From Escherichia phage vB_Eco_NicPhage: a stretch of DNA of 64,000 nt. Position numbers and translations under genes: made by a program. Of the stretch, positions 39,673 to 48,641 are shown piece by piece; the stretch's first letter is position 1, and every line of letters begins with the position of its first letter. Where the stretch lies: sequence record OY726582; one strand, given 5' to 3'. The notes beneath the pieces were generated by a model, which was given only the letters and a program-made list of their open reading frames with translations, had not been told where the DNA came from and ran no database searches.

Positions 39673-41760
39673 CTATCCTTGGACAAATTTAAACGGAACT
39701 GATTCTAAATCCATTAAAGATGCTAACAATTTCAAACCTTTAGGTGCACTAGTTTTTTCTACAAATGAGGCAAAAGATACCGGCTCATCTGATTCGATTT
39801 CACCCGTCATAGCAACTACCTCGCCTGTTTCCATGAGAACATCACCATCGTAAATGACAGCTTCGTCCAACTGGTCCGAGGACATGACTTCAGCTTGAAT
39901 AAATTTAAGGTTGGATTCTAAACCTGCACCAGTGTCAGATGACGCATCTGTAATTTTATTTATCTGCAAGAGAATGCCTCTAGGCAAAATAATTTCTTGC
40001 TCATTAGGGTGATTACTCAACTGTCCGGGATAAATCACGTTAACTTTATGAGCGCCATCAATAGCCCATCCAACATTAACACGAATTTGTTCTGGCGCAT
40101 GCATAGCGGTACGTGCCAGGCTAGGAGAAATAGTAACACCTTCGTCATTATTGTCAATGTTAAGCTCTTTGCGAACTTCTTCAGGAGCAAGTCCAAGGGC
40201 AACGTTCTCTTTAAACCCACCAAAAATAATAGGAGCTAATGAAGTAGAAACATAGTTTCTGAAGTAGAATACCTTATTTTTAACCATTGCTTCGTAAATA
40301 GGCATTCTGATAGACTGGGCTCTATACAACGTTAGTCCTTCAGGTAAACGGTCTCCATTTAAAAACGCCGAATCAAGACCATCAATAGCGCGTTTAACTT
40401 CATCTTCATCTGCAACATCATAAAAATCCGGTTTATAACGGCCTAACAACATATTATTGATATCGGTATACGCAGAAGAGGCATATTCGCGAATAGCTCG
40501 TTTTTCAGCAACAGAGTATTGTTTAGGGTCCCGATTCATTGTTATATTAAAGGTGCCTCTAGCCGATTCTCGTGCATAAGTATACATCACATTAGACAAG
40601 AACGCTGATTTACGTTGTTTCCAAGTTTTTTCAGATACTTCAGCTAAAACATCGTCGGCCAGTTGGAAATTATCACGTCTAAAATCTTCAAACCATTCGT
40701 CTTTAATAGAGTCCGCAATTTCGTTTGCAGCTTCAACAAAAGCAGCTAATGCTTTAACAGATGTTGTTTTTTCAGTTTTAATTTTCTTAGCAAACTTTTC
40801 TAAAGTTGGCTTAATAACACTACCATAAGAAACTTCATCAGCAAATCTAAAGGATTCATCAATACGATTATAAATCTTATTTTCGATATCAGCAACTAAA
40901 GTGCCTTTTGCTGTGGATGATGCTTGGGCTAGTACGATTTCATATGCTTCAGGAAGTAATTCGGCTGTAGCCGGGCCACTAACTTCTTTAGCAGAATTTT
41001 CGTATTTCTGGAATAACTCACCTTCTTGGCGGTCAGCTTCTAAAGATTGGCTTGCGGCAATAGCACGACGAGAAATTTTAGTACGAGCAATAACAGGCTT
41101 ATCTTTACGTTTTTCTTCTACAGCAGCAATAGAACCAGCGATAGCCGTTTCTTTGGTGACTTTTTCGCCGGTCTTTTTACTCACATAAACTTCGCCAACA
41201 TCAGAATCTACTTTCGTGTACAACTCTGTGTTAATGTTAGGGATGCCTTTAATATCTTCAATGTTGGCATTTTTACGAACCATCATCACATAGGTGTGTT
41301 TACCTGTGAATTGATACATTGCCGACAATACTTTAAAACGACCACCGGTTTTAGTAGAAACTAAACGAGCAAGAAGAGTTTGAAGCTGTTGTCCACGTCC
41401 TTTCAATTTCTTGGTAGGGAATCGGAACAGAACTGCATCCATACGAAGAGCTTTAACCTGTTCATATACCGTATTGAAAATGGTGTTGATTGCATCAATA
41501 GGAGCAGGACCAAGGCCATTTTTCAATTCAGCGAGATTACCCTTTTCAGACAGACTCATAATAACAACATGAGCGTATTTGTCGCCAAGTTTAACTTGTT
41601 TTACAGCATCGCCTTCAGAAAGGTAAGAGAATAAGCGAACTACGATGTTTGTATCGATATCACCAATTTTCCAGACTTGTGGAACTTTAGCTTTAGGGTT
41701 CAAATTGACGACAGGAAGACTGCCTTCAGATTCAAACACTTCATTTAATTGTTCAGACAT
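39673..41760 (-). CDS. alt: ADP-ribosyltransferase Alt (virion-packaged, modifies host RNA polymerase)
   Basis: 695 aa (T4 682); position between gene 54 and DNA ligase gene 30 as in T4. Confidence 0.8.
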   Translation of the reverse strand: MSEQLNEVFESEGSLPVVNLNPKAKVPQVWKIGDIDTNIVVRLFSYLSEGDAVKQVKLGDKYAHVVIMSLSEKGNLAELKNGLGPAPIDAINTIFNTVYEQVKALRMDAVLFRFPTKKLKGRGQQLQTLLARLVSTKTGGRFKVLSAMYQFTGKHTYVMMVRKNANIEDIKGIPNINTELYTKVDSDVGEVYVSKKTGEKVTKETAIAGSIAAVEEKRKDKPVIARTKISRRAIAASQSLEADRQEGELFQKYENSAKEVSGPATAELLPEAYEIVLAQASSTAKGTLVADIENKIYNRIDESFRFADEVSYGSVIKPTLEKFAKKIKTEKTTSVKALAAFVEAANEIADSIKDEWFEDFRRDNFQLADDVLAEVSEKTWKQRKSAFLSNVMYTYARESARGTFNITMNRDPKQYSVAEKRAIREYASSAYTDINNMLLGRYKPDFYDVADEDEVKRAIDGLDSAFLNGDRLPEGLTLYRAQSIRMPIYEAMVKNKVFYFRNYVSTSLAPIIFGGFKENVALGLAPEEVRKELNIDNNDEGVTISPSLARTAMHAPEQIRVNVGWAIDGAHKVNVIYPGQLSNHPNEQEIILPRGILLQINKITDASSDTGAGLESNLKFIQAEVMSSDQLDEAVIYDGDVLMETGEVVAMTGEIESDEPVSFASFVEKTSAPKGLKLLASLMDLESVPFKFVQG

Positions 41761-41816: not shown

Positions 41817-42004
41817 TAATCCACAATCGGGAGCAAAGTACGATAAACTTCAAAATTAGGACCTTTTTCGTACTTATCGAAATTGTCCATAAAAATATGA
41901 TAGGAATCGTTATTAGGAAAATCTAATATAATCTGAGAGCAAGAGGTGGAAACATCTCCACCATCCTTCTTAGCTACAATAACTGTTTCTAAATAAGCTT
42001 TCAT
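41816..42004 (-). CDS. Hypothetical protein (62 aa) between gene 30 and alt
   Basis: Start taken at the Met overlapping the gp30 stop (ATGA-type coupling) rather than ORF-track 42025. Confidence 0.45.
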   Translation of the reverse strand: MKAYLETVIVAKKDGGDVSTSCSQIILDFPNNDSYHIFMDNFDKYEKGPNFEVYRTLLPIVD

Positions 42005-43497
42005 TATAAACCTGTCTGGGACCACGGTCCAAATACGTCTTCAAACGAATCCGCTTCTGTTTTATCAAAACGGAACCCTTTAATAATTGGGAGGAAAATA
42101 CCTACAGTGCCTTCACGTCCTTTAGAATGAACCCAACCATTACATTCACAATCAGCAATACGTCCAATCAATTTACCTTCACGAGCTTCGGCCATTAATC
42201 GTTCACGGTCCAAATCATGTCGCTCATCTAAAGGAATAAGAACCTTTACACCATCAACTGTTTTATGAGTTGTATCTTTAAACCCTGAACCACAATCGGT
42301 TGTAATACGACGACAACGTGATACGAGTTCGACACCACCTAATTTGTTAGGGTCTTTAGAGTGTTCATAGTATCCTACAACTTCTAAAGCGATATCAATA
42401 ACTTCTTTAAATTTAATTAGGTTCTTAGAACGTTTGTTTTCCCAATATGAATCACGGTTTTTAAGGATAATACCTTCAAGACCTTGGTCAACATATTTTT
42501 TATAAACCACTTTAGCTTCGTCAAGATTACGAACTAACTGATTTTCAATTGGCTCAATTCGTTTAAAGCCTTCAGCCATATTTTCAAGAGCAGCAAAACG
42601 AACATCGTATTTCTGACCTTTAATTTTGCCATCAGAATAGACTTCATCTAAAGGAACATAGTCCCAGGCTTGAAGAACCATACCTTCAGCTTCTTTAGGA
42701 GAAATAGTCCCTTGAAGAGATTTATTTGCTAAACCGTTTGAAGTGCTACGGTCCGCAACTTGTACTTCTTCGGATTCTTCATTATCACCAAATAAGAACG
42801 ACAGGTCATTTCCTGAGCTCACAGCCTTTTTAATATCAAATGAATGGTAAACTAATTCACCGTCGATTAAAACCCCATTATGGTGTCTTTCACGAGCTTC
42901 TTTAGTCATTTCCATTAGTTCATCCGCTAATAGAGTAAGACCATGATATTCGTTGCCGGCACGAGAAAAGAATTGAACACCATCATCGCGAACTTCAGCG
43001 AAACAACGAGCACCATCTGCTTTTAATTGGGCAAATGCGGGCCATTTAATATTTTTAGTAATCAATTTCTCGTCATATGCAGATGCTAACATCTGTGGTT
43101 GCAATTGAATAAGTCCAGGCCACACCTTATTCGCGATAGACACTGAAGCACCTACTTCAAGGTCGCGCATCATTACACGACGAAGGACTTCTACATCATC
43201 AGGTTTACCATCAGCGATATAACCCATGAGCTCTTTAATTGCAGCATTACCAGTGAGTTTACGAGTGGCTAATGTGAACTCAATAAAATCCAACATGTCA
43301 TCTAATTCAAGAAGACCATACGCTTGAGACCTTTCACCTGGTCCTGGCCATTTCTTAATATAATACTGGATACCACGTGCATATGTTAAACGATACACAC
43401 GTTCAAGTAATTTGTTGTCCTTATTTTTCTTAAGGATTTCCTGTTTTGTTTTAGTAGAACCGATCGCAGCTATTTGGTTTAAAATATCTAAAATCAT
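42004..43497 (-). CDS. 30: ATP-dependent DNA ligase gp30
   Basis: 497 aa; adenylation motif KADGARCF (KxDG); C-terminal CECNGW; colinear with remembered T4 ligase. Confidence 0.9.
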   Translation of the reverse strand: MILDILNQIAAIGSTKTKQEILKKNKDNKLLERVYRLTYARGIQYYIKKWPGPGERSQAYGLLELDDMLDFIEFTLATRKLTGNAAIKELMGYIADGKPDDVEVLRRVMMRDLEVGASVSIANKVWPGLIQLQPQMLASAYDEKLITKNIKWPAFAQLKADGARCFAEVRDDGVQFFSRAGNEYHGLTLLADELMEMTKEARERHHNGVLIDGELVYHSFDIKKAVSSGNDLSFLFGDNEESEEVQVADRSTSNGLANKSLQGTISPKEAEGMVLQAWDYVPLDEVYSDGKIKGQKYDVRFAALENMAEGFKRIEPIENQLVRNLDEAKVVYKKYVDQGLEGIILKNRDSYWENKRSKNLIKFKEVIDIALEVVGYYEHSKDPNKLGGVELVSRCRRITTDCGSGFKDTTHKTVDGVKVLIPLDERHDLDRERLMAEAREGKLIGRIADCECNGWVHSKGREGTVGIFLPIIKGFRFDKTEADSFEDVFGPWSQTGL

Positions 43498-43679
43498 TTG
43501 ATGTCCTCGATTTTGGTTACGGTTCTATTATAAGCCACTTCATCTAGAAGCGATTTCAGCGTTTTCTGATAAGTTGTAATCCATTTACCGAGTCCTTCAA
43601 CATAGTATTCTGAAATGTAGATGAACCCTTGTTCAACACACTCTTTAAATATTTCTGCGTCTTTTACTGAACGAAACAA
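43494..43679 (-). CDS. Hypothetical protein (61 aa), 30.1-position
   Basis: Small ORF translationally coupled (4-nt overlap) to gene 30. Confidence 0.45.
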   Translation of the reverse strand: MFRSVKDAEIFKECVEQGFIYISEYYVEGLGKWITTYQKTLKSLLDEVAYNRTVTKIEDIK

Positions 43680-43772
43680 TGGTCAGTCTCGAAAGAACAT
43701 GTTAACGTGACCGTAGTCACGTGTGGTATTTTTGCCATCTGTAATATCATGAACTACAAACATAATTAACCC

Positions 43773-44597
43773 TTAACAATTTATAGACCAAGTCCATTTA
43801 GACGAATCTAAAGGAAAGTTTTGAATCGTCCACCACGGCTGCATATCAGTTGGTCCTGGGGTTCGCCAGGTATATGGAGTACGTGTTGTCGAGGGGCCAC
43901 CAATTTGATTGGGCCATGCACCTGGACTTGTTGCACCAGATTCTTTAAGCAAATCCGCCAATCGTTTTAAAAGGTCTTCACGATCTGAATCTGAATTATT
44001 CTTAGGCAGAACCAAACGAGATTCAATATCATCCCACGTGTGTACACGTTGTGCAGTACGAGGAATGGCATCACGTTCACCACGAGCCAACCAATAAATC
44101 GGTACATTAAGAATTTCTGCCGCATGGTCACAATGATGAGCTAAATCGTCAACGTAACAAATTACGTTATATTTTGTTTTAGCTAGTTCGAATAATTGTT
44201 CCTTTGAAGAATCATGACCACACATCATTACTTCAGAGAAAGCGCCTGGGAACAAAGCATTCAAATTAAATTGTCTATTCAATCGAGCATCAATTGAATC
44301 ACCTAGCGCCGTCACGGCTACAAAATTATAGTCTTCTTTTAGTTTATTGATAACTCGAAGAGCATCAGAATAAGGCGCTAAGTAACGAATAAAATCAGAG
44401 CTATTATATTTTTCTATTAATTGTTTACCAAGGTTATCGTCGGTATTGAACAGTTTACCAGGAGAAATAAATTTTTCGTCCTGAATCATTTTTAAAATAT
44501 GTTCTAATGGAAGGTTATATTTTTGGGCAAAATAAGGAAGTCCAGATTGCCAGCTTAAACATACACCATCAATATCAGTCAAAATAGTAGGCTTCAT
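43773..44597 (-). CDS. HAD-superfamily-like hydrolase (nucleotidase-like), 30.2-position, with Pro/Trp/Thr-rich C-terminal tail
   Basis: N-terminal LTDIDGVCL fits HAD motif I (DxDxV); later YVDD fits motif IV; C-terminal about 50 aa is low complexity. Confidence 0.55.
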   Translation of the reverse strand: MKPTILTDIDGVCLSWQSGLPYFAQKYNLPLEHILKMIQDEKFISPGKLFNTDDNLGKQLIEKYNSSDFIRYLAPYSDALRVINKLKEDYNFVAVTALGDSIDARLNRQFNLNALFPGAFSEVMMCGHDSSKEQLFELAKTKYNVICYVDDLAHHCDHAAEILNVPIYWLARGERDAIPRTAQRVHTWDDIESRLVLPKNNSDSDREDLLKRLADLLKESGATSPGAWPNQIGGPSTTRTPYTWRTPGPTDMQPWWTIQNFPLDSSKWTWSINC

Positions 44598-45061
44598 AAA
44601 GAGTCTCTTAATAGGTTTAACACGTCAATAAATTCATCTTCAGTTAGTATTGTATCATCTTTTGTTAGGTGGCTGGCCATGCTGTGCTTCAAAATTTTTC
44701 CTTTAGAGGCTTGTAAGGCATCACGAAACCCCTTGTTTTGGATCGCGGCTTCAAAATATGCATTTGTGTATAATTCTTTCCACGCTTCGGAGTATCTTGA
44801 AAATGGAACTCCTAACCAGAAGAGAGTCCCACGGTCCTGAGCTCTTGCGTAAGACCTTCCAGCTTGCTGTGCGGCCAGTCCTGACAGCCCAAATATACGT
44901 CTTTGTTGTTCAACATTTTTCACCTTACATCCTTGGAGAAATCCTTCAAGACCTCCGAATTGAATACCATCCATAACAAAAGGCCATTGAGCAAAGTTAC
45001 TTAATGCACATGACGGCCATTTGAAATTACTTCTTATTTCTAATTCAGACATCTTTAACAC
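44594..45061 (-). CDS. NADAR-domain (YbiA-like) protein, 30.3-position
   Basis: 155 aa; SNF.QWPF..DG..F...E......K and FGLSGLAAQQAGRS segments resemble the NADAR/YbiA fold; T4 30.3 is a NADAR family member. Confidence 0.55.
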   Translation of the reverse strand: MLKMSELEIRSNFKWPSCALSNFAQWPFVMDGIQFGGLEGFLQGCKVKNVEQQRRIFGLSGLAAQQAGRSYARAQDRGTLFWLGVPFSRYSEAWKELYTNAYFEAAIQNKGFRDALQASKGKILKHSMASHLTKDDTILTEDEFIDVLNLLRDSL

Positions 45062-45263
45062 TTATAATTTCAACATCAGCCCAATGTCCGTATCCAGGTA
45101 TACGGTCTTCGATAGATAAATTTCTGTCATTTTTAGGCATTTTAATTGACGTAACGTATGGTTCTAAACGGTTTTCCGCGTAATATGGAAAAACGTCGGT
45201 TACACGATAAGTAACTTCAATCATTTCCGTACCAAACAATTTCTGGATTAATTTATTCAACAT
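45045..45263 (-). CDS. Hypothetical protein (72 aa)
   Basis: ORF in tightly packed minus-strand early cluster, overlaps both neighbours. Confidence 0.4.
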   Translation of the reverse strand: MLNKLIQKLFGTEMIEVTYRVTDVFPYYAENRLEPYVTSIKMPKNDRNLSIEDRIPGYGHWADVEIISVKDV

Positions 45264-45450
45264 GTTTCAACCCTTTAATAGGAGATAACTCTTTACCCAT
45301 ACGTATGTCAGAAGTCCCATCAACCCATTGAACAGCATACGCTTCATTGATAATTCCAACGGCAGTTTTAAATTCTTTGAGAACTTTAAAAATCATCCCA
45401 GGGATTCCAACACCTTTTAATTGGACTGTTTGTGCTATTAAAAATTTCAT
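45253..45450 (-). CDS. Hypothetical protein (65 aa)
   Basis: ORF in early cluster; possible sigma70-like promoter 45475-45504 upstream. Confidence 0.4.
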   Translation of the reverse strand: MKFLIAQTVQLKGVGIPGMIFKVLKEFKTAVGIINEAYAVQWVDGTSDIRMGKELSPIKGLKHVE

Positions 45451-45504
45451 ATTTTTCCACTTACTAAAGAAATCATTATACTCTAATCCGTCCTTGGATG
45501 TACA

Positions 45505-46119
45505 CTACTTAATGAAATTAATTTCTACCGGATGAACAACAGGTTGAGCAGTGATATATTGAGTAATTGCTTTCATGACTAGAGCTTCAGAACCAGGATT
45601 TTTCTCAACGAATTCACGTGCTAGGTTATGAGCTTCGAGTTCACTCAATAAACCGGAACGCTGGCATCGGCGGTCTTGAGTACCCTGTTCAGATAAAAGG
45701 ACTACTACATATTTTTCATCGTCGTAGGGCTTAGCCAGTTGAGCAAATGTTCCTTTACTTCCAAAAGGAGAGTTATGTCGCCACATCACGCCGTGAGGAG
45801 TTTCAACCTTCGTATATTCGTGCGGTCCATTTTTCTTAGTTTCTTGATGTGGAACTTCATAGACCTTAGGGTTAGGACATTCAATAAAATGCTCATCTAA
45901 ATCGGTCGAGAATATTAAAGTAAAACAATTACTGAATTTACCAACACCGGCCTGATAAATTTTACCTTCAGAAGTTCTAATTTCACAAACTGAGCCGGCA
46001 TCAGTAACTTCTAAAACTTCAAAAGGCTCAATAAGGTCATATGAGAACATGTTTTTAAGGCGTGGAGTAATATCCCCATTTTTAAAATTCATTTTATAAA
46101 AAGTATTAACTTTAAACAT
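45505..46119 (-). CDS. Hypothetical protein (204 aa)
   Basis: Start moved to Met at 46119 (MFKVNTFYK..., AGGAA Shine-Dalgarno) because the ORF-track start at 46149 lies inside the terminator hairpin 46132-46147. Confidence 0.5.
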   Translation of the reverse strand: MFKVNTFYKMNFKNGDITPRLKNMFSYDLIEPFEVLEVTDAGSVCEIRTSEGKIYQAGVGKFSNCFTLIFSTDLDEHFIECPNPKVYEVPHQETKKNGPHEYTKVETPHGVMWRHNSPFGSKGTFAQLAKPYDDEKYVVVLLSEQGTQDRRCQRSGLLSELEAHNLAREFVEKNPGSEALVMKAITQYITAQPVVHPVEINFIK

Positions 46120-46131
46120 AATTTCCTCAGT

Positions 46132-46147
46132 GGGAGCCGAAGCTCCC
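46132..46147 (-). terminator. Minus-strand hairpin GGGAGC-UUCG-GCUCCC between ORFs 46155..46520 and 45505..46119
   Basis: GC stem with UUCG loop; weak U-tract, so possibly an RNA-processing or stability element rather than a full terminator. Confidence 0.45.
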
Positions 46148-46154
46148 AATTAAT

Positions 46155-46520
46155 TTAGATATCAAATTCGTTAAGAACTACATCAAAGATTGCTTCGAGA
46201 TGTTCAGGTTTAGCTCGGTTGCTCAGGATATGACGAATCCAAGTTTTAACCAGAAGTTTACGATTAACACCATTCCAGCAAGGATGAATACCTAAATCAC
46301 GCTGACGGAAATCATCATCTAATGCAATTTTAAAATTTGAACCTTCCATCGTGATTGAAACCGTGATACCATTTTCAAATCGCATATAAACGTAATTAGG
46401 AGTCATGCACTGTTCGATTTCACAAACTGTACCGTTTTCGTGTTTCCATAAGCAAATAACTTCAGAAGAACCAGCAATACCGTTAGAAACATATTTACGT
46501 TCGAAGTTGGTGTAGTTCAT
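46155..46520 (-). CDS. Hypothetical protein (121 aa), possible paralog of the next gene
   Basis: Own early-promoter-like element (46561-46590); shares a G(S/T)VCEI / CMTP-containing segment with neighbouring ORFs. Confidence 0.55.
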   Translation of the reverse strand: MNYTNFERKYVSNGIAGSSEVICLWKHENGTVCEIEQCMTPNYVYMRFENGITVSITMEGSNFKIALDDDFRQRDLGIHPCWNGVNRKLLVKTWIRHILSNRAKPEHLEAIFDVVLNEFDI

Positions 46521-46560
46521 TTTATTCTCCAGATGTTTAAGTTGTTTGTTGGTACAGGTC

Positions 46561-46590
46561 TATAATAACATAACCTGTACCAAAGTAAAC
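46561..46590 (-). promoter_or_regulatory. Early promoter (GTTTAC-N17-TATTAT) for ORF 46155..46520
   Basis: Minus strand reads cagTTTACtttggtacaggttatgtTATTATagacc. Confidence 0.45.
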
Positions 46591-46594
46591 TGTT

Positions 46595-46963
46595 TTATGC
46601 AACTTTAATCCAATTGTCTAAATTTAAAACACCTTTGGCTTTCATTTTTTCGATCAGGTTATCTGCTGTAATGCGTCCATTTTGATACCATGTAACATCT
46701 TCAGAGTAACCAGTTTCTTCGTCAACATATGTTTCTGAACGAATTTTACCGGTAATAATAGTTTTTAATTCATATGTGTCACCTGTGAAAAAGTTTGCTA
46801 ACACAATTTTCCAAGAGAAATCATCTGAAGGACCTTCAGGGGTCATACAACCTACGAACTCAAATTGCTCTTTGTATAACATCCACTGGAATTCTTTAAT
46901 TTCGATAGCTTTATAACCGTCGTGGTCTTTACATTTGATGTATGAGTTCAGATTGATTTTCAT
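46595..46963 (-). CDS. Hypothetical protein (122 aa), possible paralog of the previous gene
   Basis: Own early-promoter-like element (47006-47034); FVGCMTPEG segment. Confidence 0.55.
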   Translation of the reverse strand: MKINLNSYIKCKDHDGYKAIEIKEFQWMLYKEQFEFVGCMTPEGPSDDFSWKIVLANFFTGDTYELKTIITGKIRSETYVDEETGYSEDVTWYQNGRITADNLIEKMKAKGVLNLDNWIKVA

Positions 46964-47005
46964 TTTGTTCTCCGGTTTGTTTTATCGATTAGGTGGTACA
47001 AGTCT

Positions 47006-47034
47006 ATAGTAACACATCCTACAGGAGAGTAAAC
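47006..47034 (-). promoter_or_regulatory. Early promoter (TTTACT-N16-TACTAT) for ORF 46595..46963
   Basis: Minus strand reads gTTTACTctcctgtaggatgtgtTACTATagac. Confidence 0.45.
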
Positions 47035-47071
47035 ATCTTTTTTAAACTTTTTCTGCCCTAAACGCACAAAA

Positions 47072-47089
47072 GGGAGACCGAAGTCTCCC
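47072..47089 (-). terminator. Minus-strand terminator GGGAGAC-UUCG-GUCUCCC + UUUUGUG downstream of the small basic ORF
   Basis: Identical stem-loop to the gene 23 and gene 32 terminators. Confidence 0.7.
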
Positions 47090-47094
47090 TAAAA

Positions 47095-47274
47095 TTATGC
47101 AACAACCTTTCCAAAACGAGAAGCATCATCTCGAAGAACTGCACGTGCTCTGCGCATGATCTTCTCAACTGTTTGATTAATACGAGAGTTCGACCCACGC
47201 TTGTATCCAGCGCGTTTAGAGGTACCATCAACTTTCTTTTCAACTGCTTTCTTTGCTTTAGCTTGTTTTGCCAT
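47095..47274 (-). CDS. Small highly basic protein (59 aa), not in the ORF track
   Basis: Hand translation of the minus strand: MAKQAKAKKAVEKKVDGTSKRAGYKRGSNSRINQTVEKIMRRARAVLRDDASRFGKVVA; followed by the terminator hairpin at 47072-47089; the ORF-track entry 47058..47243 is in another frame of the same region. Confidence 0.4.
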   Translation of the reverse strand: MAKQAKAKKAVEKKVDGTSKRAGYKRGSNSRINQTVEKIMRRARAVLRDDASRFGKVVA

Positions 47275-47569
47275 TATAAATTCTCTTTAAATGAAAATGC
47301 AGGACTTATTGACATTGCCTGCGCAAGCCCTCAAGGGGAACATAGGTTTTGGATATTTAACGACAGGATAACCATAAACCCGTCATCATACCAACCACGA
47401 CTTAGACAGATAACCTTTTTCTGACGCGTGATAGTACAAAATACATTCAAGAGGTACACCGTAAAACTGCCGGGGCCTTAAAACTATAATGATTCGCAAA
47501 TCATTAATCAGACAGTTCGACGGCTCCTCGATTTTCTAGCCGCACTTAAGGTAGCGAATCACCTAAAAC

Positions 47570-47818
47570 TTATTTAAGGGTAATAACAAAATGACGTACT
47601 GCTTTACGAGCTGCAGAAGCCAAAGGCTTAGCATATTTCAGTTCATCTTTTGCTTCCAGTTCAGAGGCCAAAGCTGCCTGTACCGGGTTCAGATGTTTGA
47701 AATAATGCAGGATTTCCAGTGCTTCGGCTTCAACATCAATCGACGCGCCGTAGTTTTCGTGACCGTTATTCCATGCGTTTCGTTGCAGTTCAAGAGCGTG
47801 TTGTAATTGTTTAATCAT
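47570..47818 (-). CDS. rIII: rIII lysis-inhibition accessory protein
   Basis: 82 aa, identical to T4 RIII length, immediately downstream of gene 31 as in T4. Confidence 0.75.
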   Translation of the reverse strand: MIKQLQHALELQRNAWNNGHENYGASIDVEAEALEILHYFKHLNPVQAALASELEAKDELKYAKPLASAARKAVRHFVITLK

Positions 47819-47923
47819 TTTAAATTCTCAATTCGAGATAATATTTAGTAGCCACGTTCGTCTGAATTTCACCTTCTTTCGACAAGTCTCTCAGTTGTAG
47901 GCTACCGCTTAGAAGAGTGTTCT

Positions 47924-47931
47924 CTTCATAT
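47924..47931 (-). promoter_or_regulatory. Minus-strand late promoter TATAAATA between gene 31 and rIII
   Basis: Reverse complement of plus-strand tatttata in the gp31-rIII intergenic region. Confidence 0.4.
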
Positions 47932-47942
47932 AGTTATTTATA

Positions 47943-48275
47943 TCACTTATAAAGACACGGAATAGCTTTATAGTGGCATGTTACGAATTTCTGTTTAATT
48001 TCTTTAGGTTGTTTAAGTCCCAAAGCCACAAATGGATGTGGAACATTTCGAATTTGTCCAACTGGTAGTGGAGTCAAATCACCGACTTCAACAAAACCTT
48101 CAGGAACATCAGGACCTACAGAATGAACTACACATAGTTCAGGAACTTCACCTTGAACACGTTTACCAATCACAAGTCCTGATTCGGTAACTTCTTCATC
48201 ACCTGCTTGAGCGGGTTCAGAAACCAGAATGACATATTCACCAACAGCACGAATTGGGAGTTGTACTTCAGACAT
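47943..48275 (-). CDS. 31: Co-chaperonin gp31 (GroES functional analogue)
   Basis: 110 aa (T4 111); near-identical to remembered T4 gp31 ([34 protein letters not shown]...). Confidence 0.9.
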
Positions 48276-48332
48276 CTTATTTCCTTGTTGTTTGACGATA
48301 GATTAATAATACCATACTATTCGTAAAGCATA

Positions 48333-48641
48333 TTACATAAGAAGCAAACGTTCTACCGGAGTACCATCAACCGAAATTACTTTATCAAGGCGGAAAGAAC
48401 GCCACTGACCTAACTTGGTATCGAATGCTCGAACTGATTCACGAGGTTCAGAACGAACTTCTGATGCCGGATTGTTATTTTCATATTTGACTTCAAGTTC
48501 ATCGCGAGAAGCAAACATAGTGCGTACCTCACCGTTAGCCTTTTCAAATACAACACAATGAACGCCTACAGACAGAATAGTTTTAATACGTTCACGAAGA
48601 ACCATAGTTTCTTGTTCAGTTAAAATCATATTATTCACCAC
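48333..48641 (-). CDS. Hypothetical protein (102 aa), 31.1-position
   Basis: ORF between cd and gene 31, overlapping the cd stop region. Confidence 0.5.
   Translation of the reverse strand: MVNNMILTEQETMVLRERIKTILSVGVHCVVFEKANGEVRTMFASRDELEVKYENNNPASEVRSEPRESVRAFDTKLGQWRSFRLDKVISVDGTPVERLLLM

Follow-up and report, generated by a model that had tools for sequence, protein, structure and literature searches.

Two adjacent minus-strand genes of Escherichia phage vB_Eco_NicPhage (sequence record OY726582, of which a stretch of 64,000 nucleotides, hereafter called the window, was analysed) raise the question of whether a NADAR-like protein and a HAD-like hydrolase act together to reverse ADP-ribosylation imposed by host defence systems. 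Such a pair had been proposed in a preliminary description made from the sequence letters, for an open reading frame (ORF) of 155 amino acids (aa) counted from a GTG codon (44594..45061, minus strand) and an adjoining ORF of 274 aa (43773..44597, minus strand). All of the quoted segments were present, that is the YbiA/NADAR-like SNFAQWPFVMDGIQF and FGLSGLAAQQAGRS in the 155-aa ORF and DIDGV and YVDD in the 274-aa ORF. The latter had been described as lying upstream, which holds for plus-strand coordinates, where its numbers are lower, but as both genes are on the minus strand it lies downstream of its neighbour in transcription. Very probably, the 155-aa ORF represents the orthologue of T4 gene 30.3 (adfN), with a product erasing DarT1 marks, and the 274-aa ORF, gene 30.2, encodes an independent HAD phosphatase which adjoins it through gene order.

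Identification of gene 30.3 as the T4 adfN orthologue

The true start of gene 30.3 is most likely not the GTG at 45061 but the ATG at 45052, located three codons downstream, so that the predicted gene spans 44594..45052 on the minus strand and encodes a protein of 152 aa (MSELEI...). This start was preferred because it gives the length of T4 gp30.3 and agrees with the published numbering of residues E36 and K43. Close homologues are mostly 150–153 aa long. The ORF delimited in the preliminary description as 44594–45061 is therefore real, but the gene itself is probably shorter at its 5' end.

The 152-aa protein aligned with T4 gp30.3 from end to end without gaps and was identical to it in 146 of 152 positions (96%, BLASTP E 1e-112), a degree of resemblance which is not due to chance. 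The six substitutions between the window protein and T4 AdfN (K11R, E89P, I120V, M125I, H128G and D140A, in the window-to-T4 direction) were conservative to moderate and none of them affected the tested catalytic positions. The Pfam family PF08010 (Phage_30_3) was matched over 138 of 138 profile positions with E 2.2e-69 and a score of 232 bits, the cut-off being 36. Among 45 aligned family members, E36 and H123 were invariant and K43 nearly invariant, and all three residues are present in the window protein. In the structure model, H123 (LKHS) directly follows the strand formed by residues 120–122, and a histidine at the last strand is a mark of the gp30.3 clade (PMC11125620). The C-terminal helix is complete, encompassing residues 138–151 of the model in a protein of the full 152 aa. 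Judged by its sequence, this ORF and T4 gene 30.3 (adfN) are orthologues, and on the basis of this orthology the former was annotated as a 152-aa NADAR-fold DNA ADP-ribosylglycohydrolase (anti-DarT factor). The gene had earlier been called the homologue of an already known locus of T4, and this was correct.

The internal out-of-frame ORF annotated in T4 as 30.3' is not kept in the corresponding region of the window (44689–44916, minus strand), where the same frame is closed by a stop after 34 codons, a finding that speaks against 30.3' as a genuine gene.

Membership of gp30.3 in the NADAR superfamily

The presence of a NADAR domain, for which a domain search had been suggested as a check, was confirmed in one respect and not in another. 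In a direct Pfam scan, the window protein had no match to PF08719 (NADAR) at E ≤ 1, the family detected being PF08010 instead, and this result, taken literally, speaks against the assignment. The NCBIfam and PADLOC scans of gp30.3 also returned nothing, and a direct sequence search against PDB chains gave no meaningful match. The evidence from family profiles was nevertheless positive. A profile search yielded 3,119 clusters of gp30.3 relatives and an exhaustive HMMER search yielded 737 family representatives at the 50% identity level. Among 45 diverse members of the family, 11 also matched Pfam NADAR, with the best E of 3.4e-6. The profile built from these 45 members detected Escherichia coli YbiA (PDB 2b3w) with E 0.0016 over the segment SNFA...E-x3-Q-x2-K, and in the profile alignment E36, Q40 and K43 corresponded to the E, Q and K of the YbiA sequence SEHYFQAQK. 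The resemblance to E. coli YbiA was also found in a fold comparison. Based on the YbiA profile match, the relatives matching Pfam NADAR and the fold evidence, the NADAR-fold assignment of gp30.3 is solid, and the missing direct match merely reflects the splitting of the superfamily in Pfam.

Many metagenomic relatives of the gp30.3 family were multidomain proteins of 250–500 aa (e.g., P0228, P0230, P0235, P0249 and P0251). In some relatives, the match to the query was divided over two or three stretches that may represent repeated NADAR domains.

Published activity of AdfN and the predicted role of gp30.3

The anti-defence role proposed for the NADAR protein in the preliminary description was right and has already been published for the T4 orthologue (PMC11825919, PMC11125620). 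The resistance of T2 and T4 to DarTG1 was mapped to gene 30.3 alone, which was renamed adfN, for anti-DarT factor NADAR (PMC11825919, Nat Commun 2025, Johannesman et al.). The deletion of adfN made T4-GT7, like wild-type T4, sensitive to DarTG1, and RB69 growing on DarTG1 hosts was rescued by ectopic AdfN-T4 (PMC11825919). According to the same study, purified AdfN strips ADP-ribose from DarT1-modified DNA in vitro, gp30.2 not being needed, and does not bind DarT1. The substitutions E36A and K43A impaired AdfN-T4, as did the RB69-type loss of the last 15 residues, which reduced its activity (PMC11825919). In another study, T4 gp30.3 hydrolysed in vitro the ADP-ribose linked to guanine on DNA but not that linked to thymidine, and phage NADARs, called gp30.3 proteins, were found to carry a last-strand histidine at a position occupied by Glu or Asp in other NADARs (PMC11125620, Toxins 2024). 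The methods of the latter study describe the T4 gp30.3 construct as residues 1–208, a length beyond the 152 aa of T4 gp30.3; another phage may have been the source of this construct, or extra sequence may have been included.

In the proposed mechanism, gp30.3 would be a stand-alone NADAR-fold enzyme made during infection, which would cleave the N-glycosidic bond by which ADP-ribose is attached to guanine once a DarT1-type toxin of the host has modified the phage DNA. The removal of the mark would restore replication and, in turn, phage growth on DarTG1 hosts. The protein would act enzymatically, in the manner of an orphan DarG1 antitoxin, without binding the toxin. The 96%-identical allele of the window probably has the same activity as the T4 protein, and the phage is predicted to resist DarTG1, since the allele keeps the C-terminal helix and every residue found important in experiments.

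Several facts weigh against so simple a picture. Enzymatic activity and a phenotype on DarTG1 hosts were shown for the T4 protein, whereas the allele considered here is known from its sequence alone. AdfN-T4 fails against DarT1 in uninfected cells and its rescue of T5 and Bas25 is minimal (PMC11825919); likewise, T4 gp30.3 gave uninfected E. coli no protection from DarT1 (PMC11125620). The authors of the former study proposed that a further T-even-encoded factor potentiates AdfN, and the mechanism thus depends on an additional element of T-even infection.

The AdfN system is already known, as it was published in 2024–2025 for a protein 96% identical to that of the window, and the present assignment brings no new biology. 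It gives a literature-backed name to a gene that the T4 RefSeq record and almost all of the related phage records found still call 'hypothetical protein', and the predicted DarTG1 resistance is useful for host-range prediction and for the annotation of phages for therapy.

Relation of gp30.3 to DarG1-type antitoxins

The DarG1-type NADAR antitoxins of the BC4488 family (e.g., the NADAR protein of Geobacter lovleyi, PDB 8bat) constitute a close known system, from which the window gene differs in several respects. The operons encoding DarT1 and NADAR carry darT, whereas the window gene is an orphan whose neighbours are a 30.4 homologue and the gene for gp30.2. No darT adjoins 30.3, gp30.3 and gp30.2 both lack a match in PADLOC, and the only nearby ADP-ribosyltransferase is the virion protein Alt, encoded 2.8 kb away. 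The NADARs associated with DarT1 have an N-terminal extension (PMC11825919), whereas the domain of the window protein begins at about residue 4 of 152, without such an extension. The last strand carries Asp in the DarG1-type NADARs and His in the window protein. Moreover, T4 gp30.3 cannot replace DarG1 in uninfected cells (PMC11825919, PMC11125620).

Alternative substrates of gp30.3

A different reading holds that the main substrates of gp30.3 are soluble ADP-ribose derivatives (immune signals, NAD-derived toxins or by-products of RNA repair) or the marks made by Alt, ModA and ModB, the cleaning of DNA being secondary. Phage NADAR domains were indeed proposed, on comparative-genomic grounds, to favour low-molecular-weight derivatives of ADP-ribose, and T4-like NADAR genes are expressed early together with ADP-ribosyltransferases (PMC9503650). 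The poor performance of AdfN-T4 outside T-even infection would also fit, as would the location of alt (39673..41760, minus strand), encoding a packaged ADP-ribosyltransferase homologue, at a distance of 2.8 kb from 30.3 and in the same orientation. The identity of alt, a gene of interest here only as context, was established by the alignment of its product with T4 Alt (41% identity along the full length, E 0.0) and by a match to Pfam ADPrib_exo_Tox (E 2.9e-28), in agreement with the earlier placement of an Alt gene about 3 kb away. Opposed to this reading are the experiments on the T4 protein, namely the hydrolysis of guanine-linked ADP-ribose on DNA and the DarTG1-specific phenotype of the adfN deletion (PMC11825919, PMC11125620), while no gp30.3 activity on protein-linked or soluble ADP-ribose is reported in the cited literature. 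In phage PG7, alt and the NADAR gene are not close to each other, and the link between Alt and 30.3, which the preliminary description had implied to be functional, is only positional. A main substrate other than modified DNA is therefore considered unlikely.

The resemblance of gp30.3 to E. coli YbiA in fold and profile might instead indicate a housekeeping N-glycosidase of the YbiA type, acting on intermediates of the riboflavin pathway, with the HAD neighbour as the matching phosphatase, like YigB or YbjI. YbiA-like enzymes are housekeeping proteins tied to riboflavin metabolism (PMC11825919), and one gp30.2 homologue bears the automatic JGI label 'FMN phosphatase YigB (HAD superfamily)'. 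This label, however, is a generic superfamily name attached to 1 of 99 homologues, another of which is labelled deoxyribonucleotidase. The identity between the window protein and YbiA (PF08719, PDB 2b3w) is about 20%, and the catalytic Glu of YbiA-family enzymes is replaced by His in the gp30.3 clade (PMC11125620), including the window protein. The clade clusters nearest to DarG1-like NADARs and not with the YbiA group (PMC11825919), and the only phenotype of T4 30.3 in the cited literature is the evasion of defence. A housekeeping role in riboflavin metabolism is scarcely credible in the light of these data, and the erasure of DarT1 marks from DNA stays the preferred function of gp30.3.

Gene 30.2 encodes a predicted HAD-superfamily phosphatase

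The neighbouring gene 30.2 (43773..44597, minus strand) was annotated as encoding a 274-aa HAD-superfamily phosphatase-like protein on the basis of conserved motifs and the predicted fold. Its product was 69% identical to T4 gp30.2, with the first ~200 residues well conserved and the last ~70 unrelated in detail. The search for a HAD domain gave a mixed outcome, the sequence matches falling below the cut-offs and the motifs and predicted fold supporting the assignment. The direct match to Pfam HAD_2 had E 0.014 and scored 16 bits against the curated cut-off of 23.8, the NCBIfam score was 12.7 bits with a cut-off of 125.4, and no more than 4–6 of 40 gp30.2 homologues gave weak matches to Hydrolase, NT5C or HAD_2; at the level of sequence, the support for HAD is weak. 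Searches of the PDB with gp30.2, both direct and with a profile, produced marginal hits only, among them 2jao, a 5'(3')-deoxyribonucleotidase (E 0.11 and 0.88).

The conservation of the HAD motifs was clear among 40 diverse homologues. The residues D8 and D10 of motif I (DxD), K132 of motif III, and D150 and D151 of motif IV were invariant and T96 of motif II was nearly so. Motifs I–IV occurred in order on a Rossmann-like core comprising residues 1–200 with a helical cap, and a fold search identified the predicted fold as HAD. With the sequence matches below the cut-offs, the assignment of gp30.2 to the superfamily is drawn from these motifs and the fold. Within the HAD superfamily, a DxD motif I characterises phosphatases and phosphomutases and is not usual in dehalogenases. 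Taken together, the residues and the model make it very probable that gp30.2 is active as a phosphatase and bears a helical cap; it is possibly nucleotidase-like, acting on a small phosphorylated metabolite. The nearest known relatives are C1-capped HAD phosphatases, e.g., 5'(3')-deoxyribonucleotidases (Pfam NT5C; PDB 3bwv, 6g2n and 2jao), from which gp30.2 differs by an identity of only 12–18%, by matches below the cut-offs and by an extra, variable and disordered C-terminal tail. A literature search on gp30.2 returned nothing relevant and no substrate or activity data, and in the PADLOC and Pfam scans the protein matched no defence family or family related to ADP-ribose.

The tail of gp30.2 (C-terminal ~70 aa, encoded at 43773–43990) has a high content of Trp, Pro and Gly, is predicted to be disordered and is unlike the tail of the T4 protein. 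A short TWRTPG-like motif recurs, and the window protein lacks a GIEYL..N.PT motif present close to the C-terminus in T4 gp30.2 and several other homologues. Many gp30.2 homologues, 196–220 aa long, have no such tail.

Linkage of genes 30.2 and 30.3

The two genes meet in an ATGA overlap read from the sequence letters (44594..44597, minus strand), in which the stop codon of 30.3 (TGA) overlaps the start codon of 30.2 (ATG). The overlap is compatible with co-transcription and translational coupling. It is not specific to these genes, as 30.4 and 30.3 likewise share a start/stop overlap at 45045–45052. A promoter and terminator scan of the 43000–48500 region gave counts equal to those expected from shuffled sequence and did not inform on operon structure.

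The conservation of the neighbourhood was examined in 80 viral loci with a gp30.3-family NADAR and 77 loci with gp30.2 relatives, each set being scanned with both family profiles. On the 30.2 side, a NADAR gene was located immediately upstream in ~22 loci and 0.1–1.2 kb upstream on the same strand in a further ~17, whereas ~38 loci had none within 6 kb. On the NADAR side, ~58 of the 80 loci had no 30.2 within 6 kb. In at least 8 large T4-like contigs common to both sets, the genes were separated by roughly 50–58 kb. A similar separation was seen in the GenBank record of Karamvirus PG7 (Enterobacter phage PG7), in which the alt-30-30.2-30.5-30.7 cluster is kept without 30.3, and a gene annotated as gp30.3 (72847–73257) is found 58 kb from that cluster, surrounded by tRNA genes. 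This suggests that 30.3 of PG7 was relocated or independently acquired.

Each gene occurred in about 1,450–1,500 phage records, with nearly alike distributions of host genera. Genome-level co-occurrence was rejected as support for a pair, both genes being simply widespread in T4-like phages of many genera. Also rejected was the idea of a second NADAR paralogue in Tequatroviruses; the contig concerned (L051) encodes a gp30.2 of only 49% identity and represents a distant T4-like phage in which the genes are unlinked. The window holds one NADAR gene and one 30.2 gene.

The adjacency could still mean that gp30.2 is the T-even factor needed by AdfN, which it would stabilise, localise or activate, or that it processes the products of AdfN, for example by dephosphorylating ribose-5-phosphate, AMP or a phosphorylated ADP-ribose derivative, so that the two genes would form a counter-defence module split in some lineages. 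The same-strand arrangement with its ATGA overlap and the ~22 and ~17 linked loci, which include gp30.2 proteins of only 39–50% identity to that of the window and contigs of ~160–233 kb, are in line with such a module, as are the nearly equal numbers of records and host-genus spread of the two genes. A potentiating T-even factor was left open by PMC11825919, and a 30.2-30.3 region is depicted there for RB69, a phage in which ectopic AdfN-T4 is fully effective; gp30.2 is one candidate for this factor among many T-even genes. On the other side, about half of the gp30.2 loci and most of the NADAR loci lacked the partner nearby, and the wide separation in T4-like contigs and in PG7 argues against an obligate module. 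Stop/start overlaps are usual in this gene string and T4-like gene order is broadly conserved, so adjacency weighs little, while co-occurrence is expected of any two widely conserved genes in this phage family. The determinant of DarTG1 resistance was 30.3 alone and purified AdfN was active without gp30.2 (PMC11825919), and gp30.2 has no match to PADLOC or to families related to ADP-ribose. A two-gene module is thus very unlikely.

In view of the unlinked genomes, the mapping of the determinant to 30.3 alone and the in vitro activity of AdfN without a partner, the functional pair put forward in the preliminary description is unsupported, and no published or computed evidence ties gp30.2 to ADP-ribose. 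The adjacency of 30.2 and 30.3 most likely goes back to the order of genes that T4-like phages have inherited in the cluster around the ligase gene (gene 30), with gp30.2 as a protein independent of AdfN.

Gene order and other features of the cluster

The window belongs to a T4-like coliphage. The 2.1 kb surrounding 30.3 and 30.2 was 99.6% identical to Escherichia phage APCEc01 and matched 665 phage records, chiefly of Escherichia and Shigella phages. The minus-strand string comprises alt, a 69-aa ORF, gene 30 encoding DNA ligase (42004–43497), a 30.1 homologue with the Pfam domain DUF3045 (43494–43763), 30.2, 30.3 and homologues of 30.4, 30.5, 30.7 and 30.8, in accordance with the T4 order alt-30-30.1-30.2-30.3-30.4-30.5. 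Beyond the 30.8 homologue, gp31 and dCMP deaminase were named from size and position only.

In comparison with the T4 locus, the window differs in the gp30.2 tail, in a 214-aa ORF in place of 30.6 and in Alt. The identity to T4 was uneven across the cluster, reaching 41% for Alt, 96% for gp30.3 and roughly 85% for the gp30.2 core, a pattern that points to mosaic exchange. The 214-aa ORF (45505–46149, minus strand), situated between the 30.5 and 30.7 homologues, had no Pfam match, and the same slot in T4 holds the unrelated 95-aa gene 30.6. The 30.5-30.7 interval looks like a variable slot of the cluster.

The 30.1 homologue is broken by an in-frame TGA (43685–43683) at the position of Cys27 in T4 gp30.1, and only its 61-aa 3' part appears as an ORF, with a TTG start. 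Possible explanations of the interruption are a pseudogene, a split gene and a site of read-through. The region of this homologue also contains the palindrome ACGTGACCGTAGTCACGT at 43705–43722.

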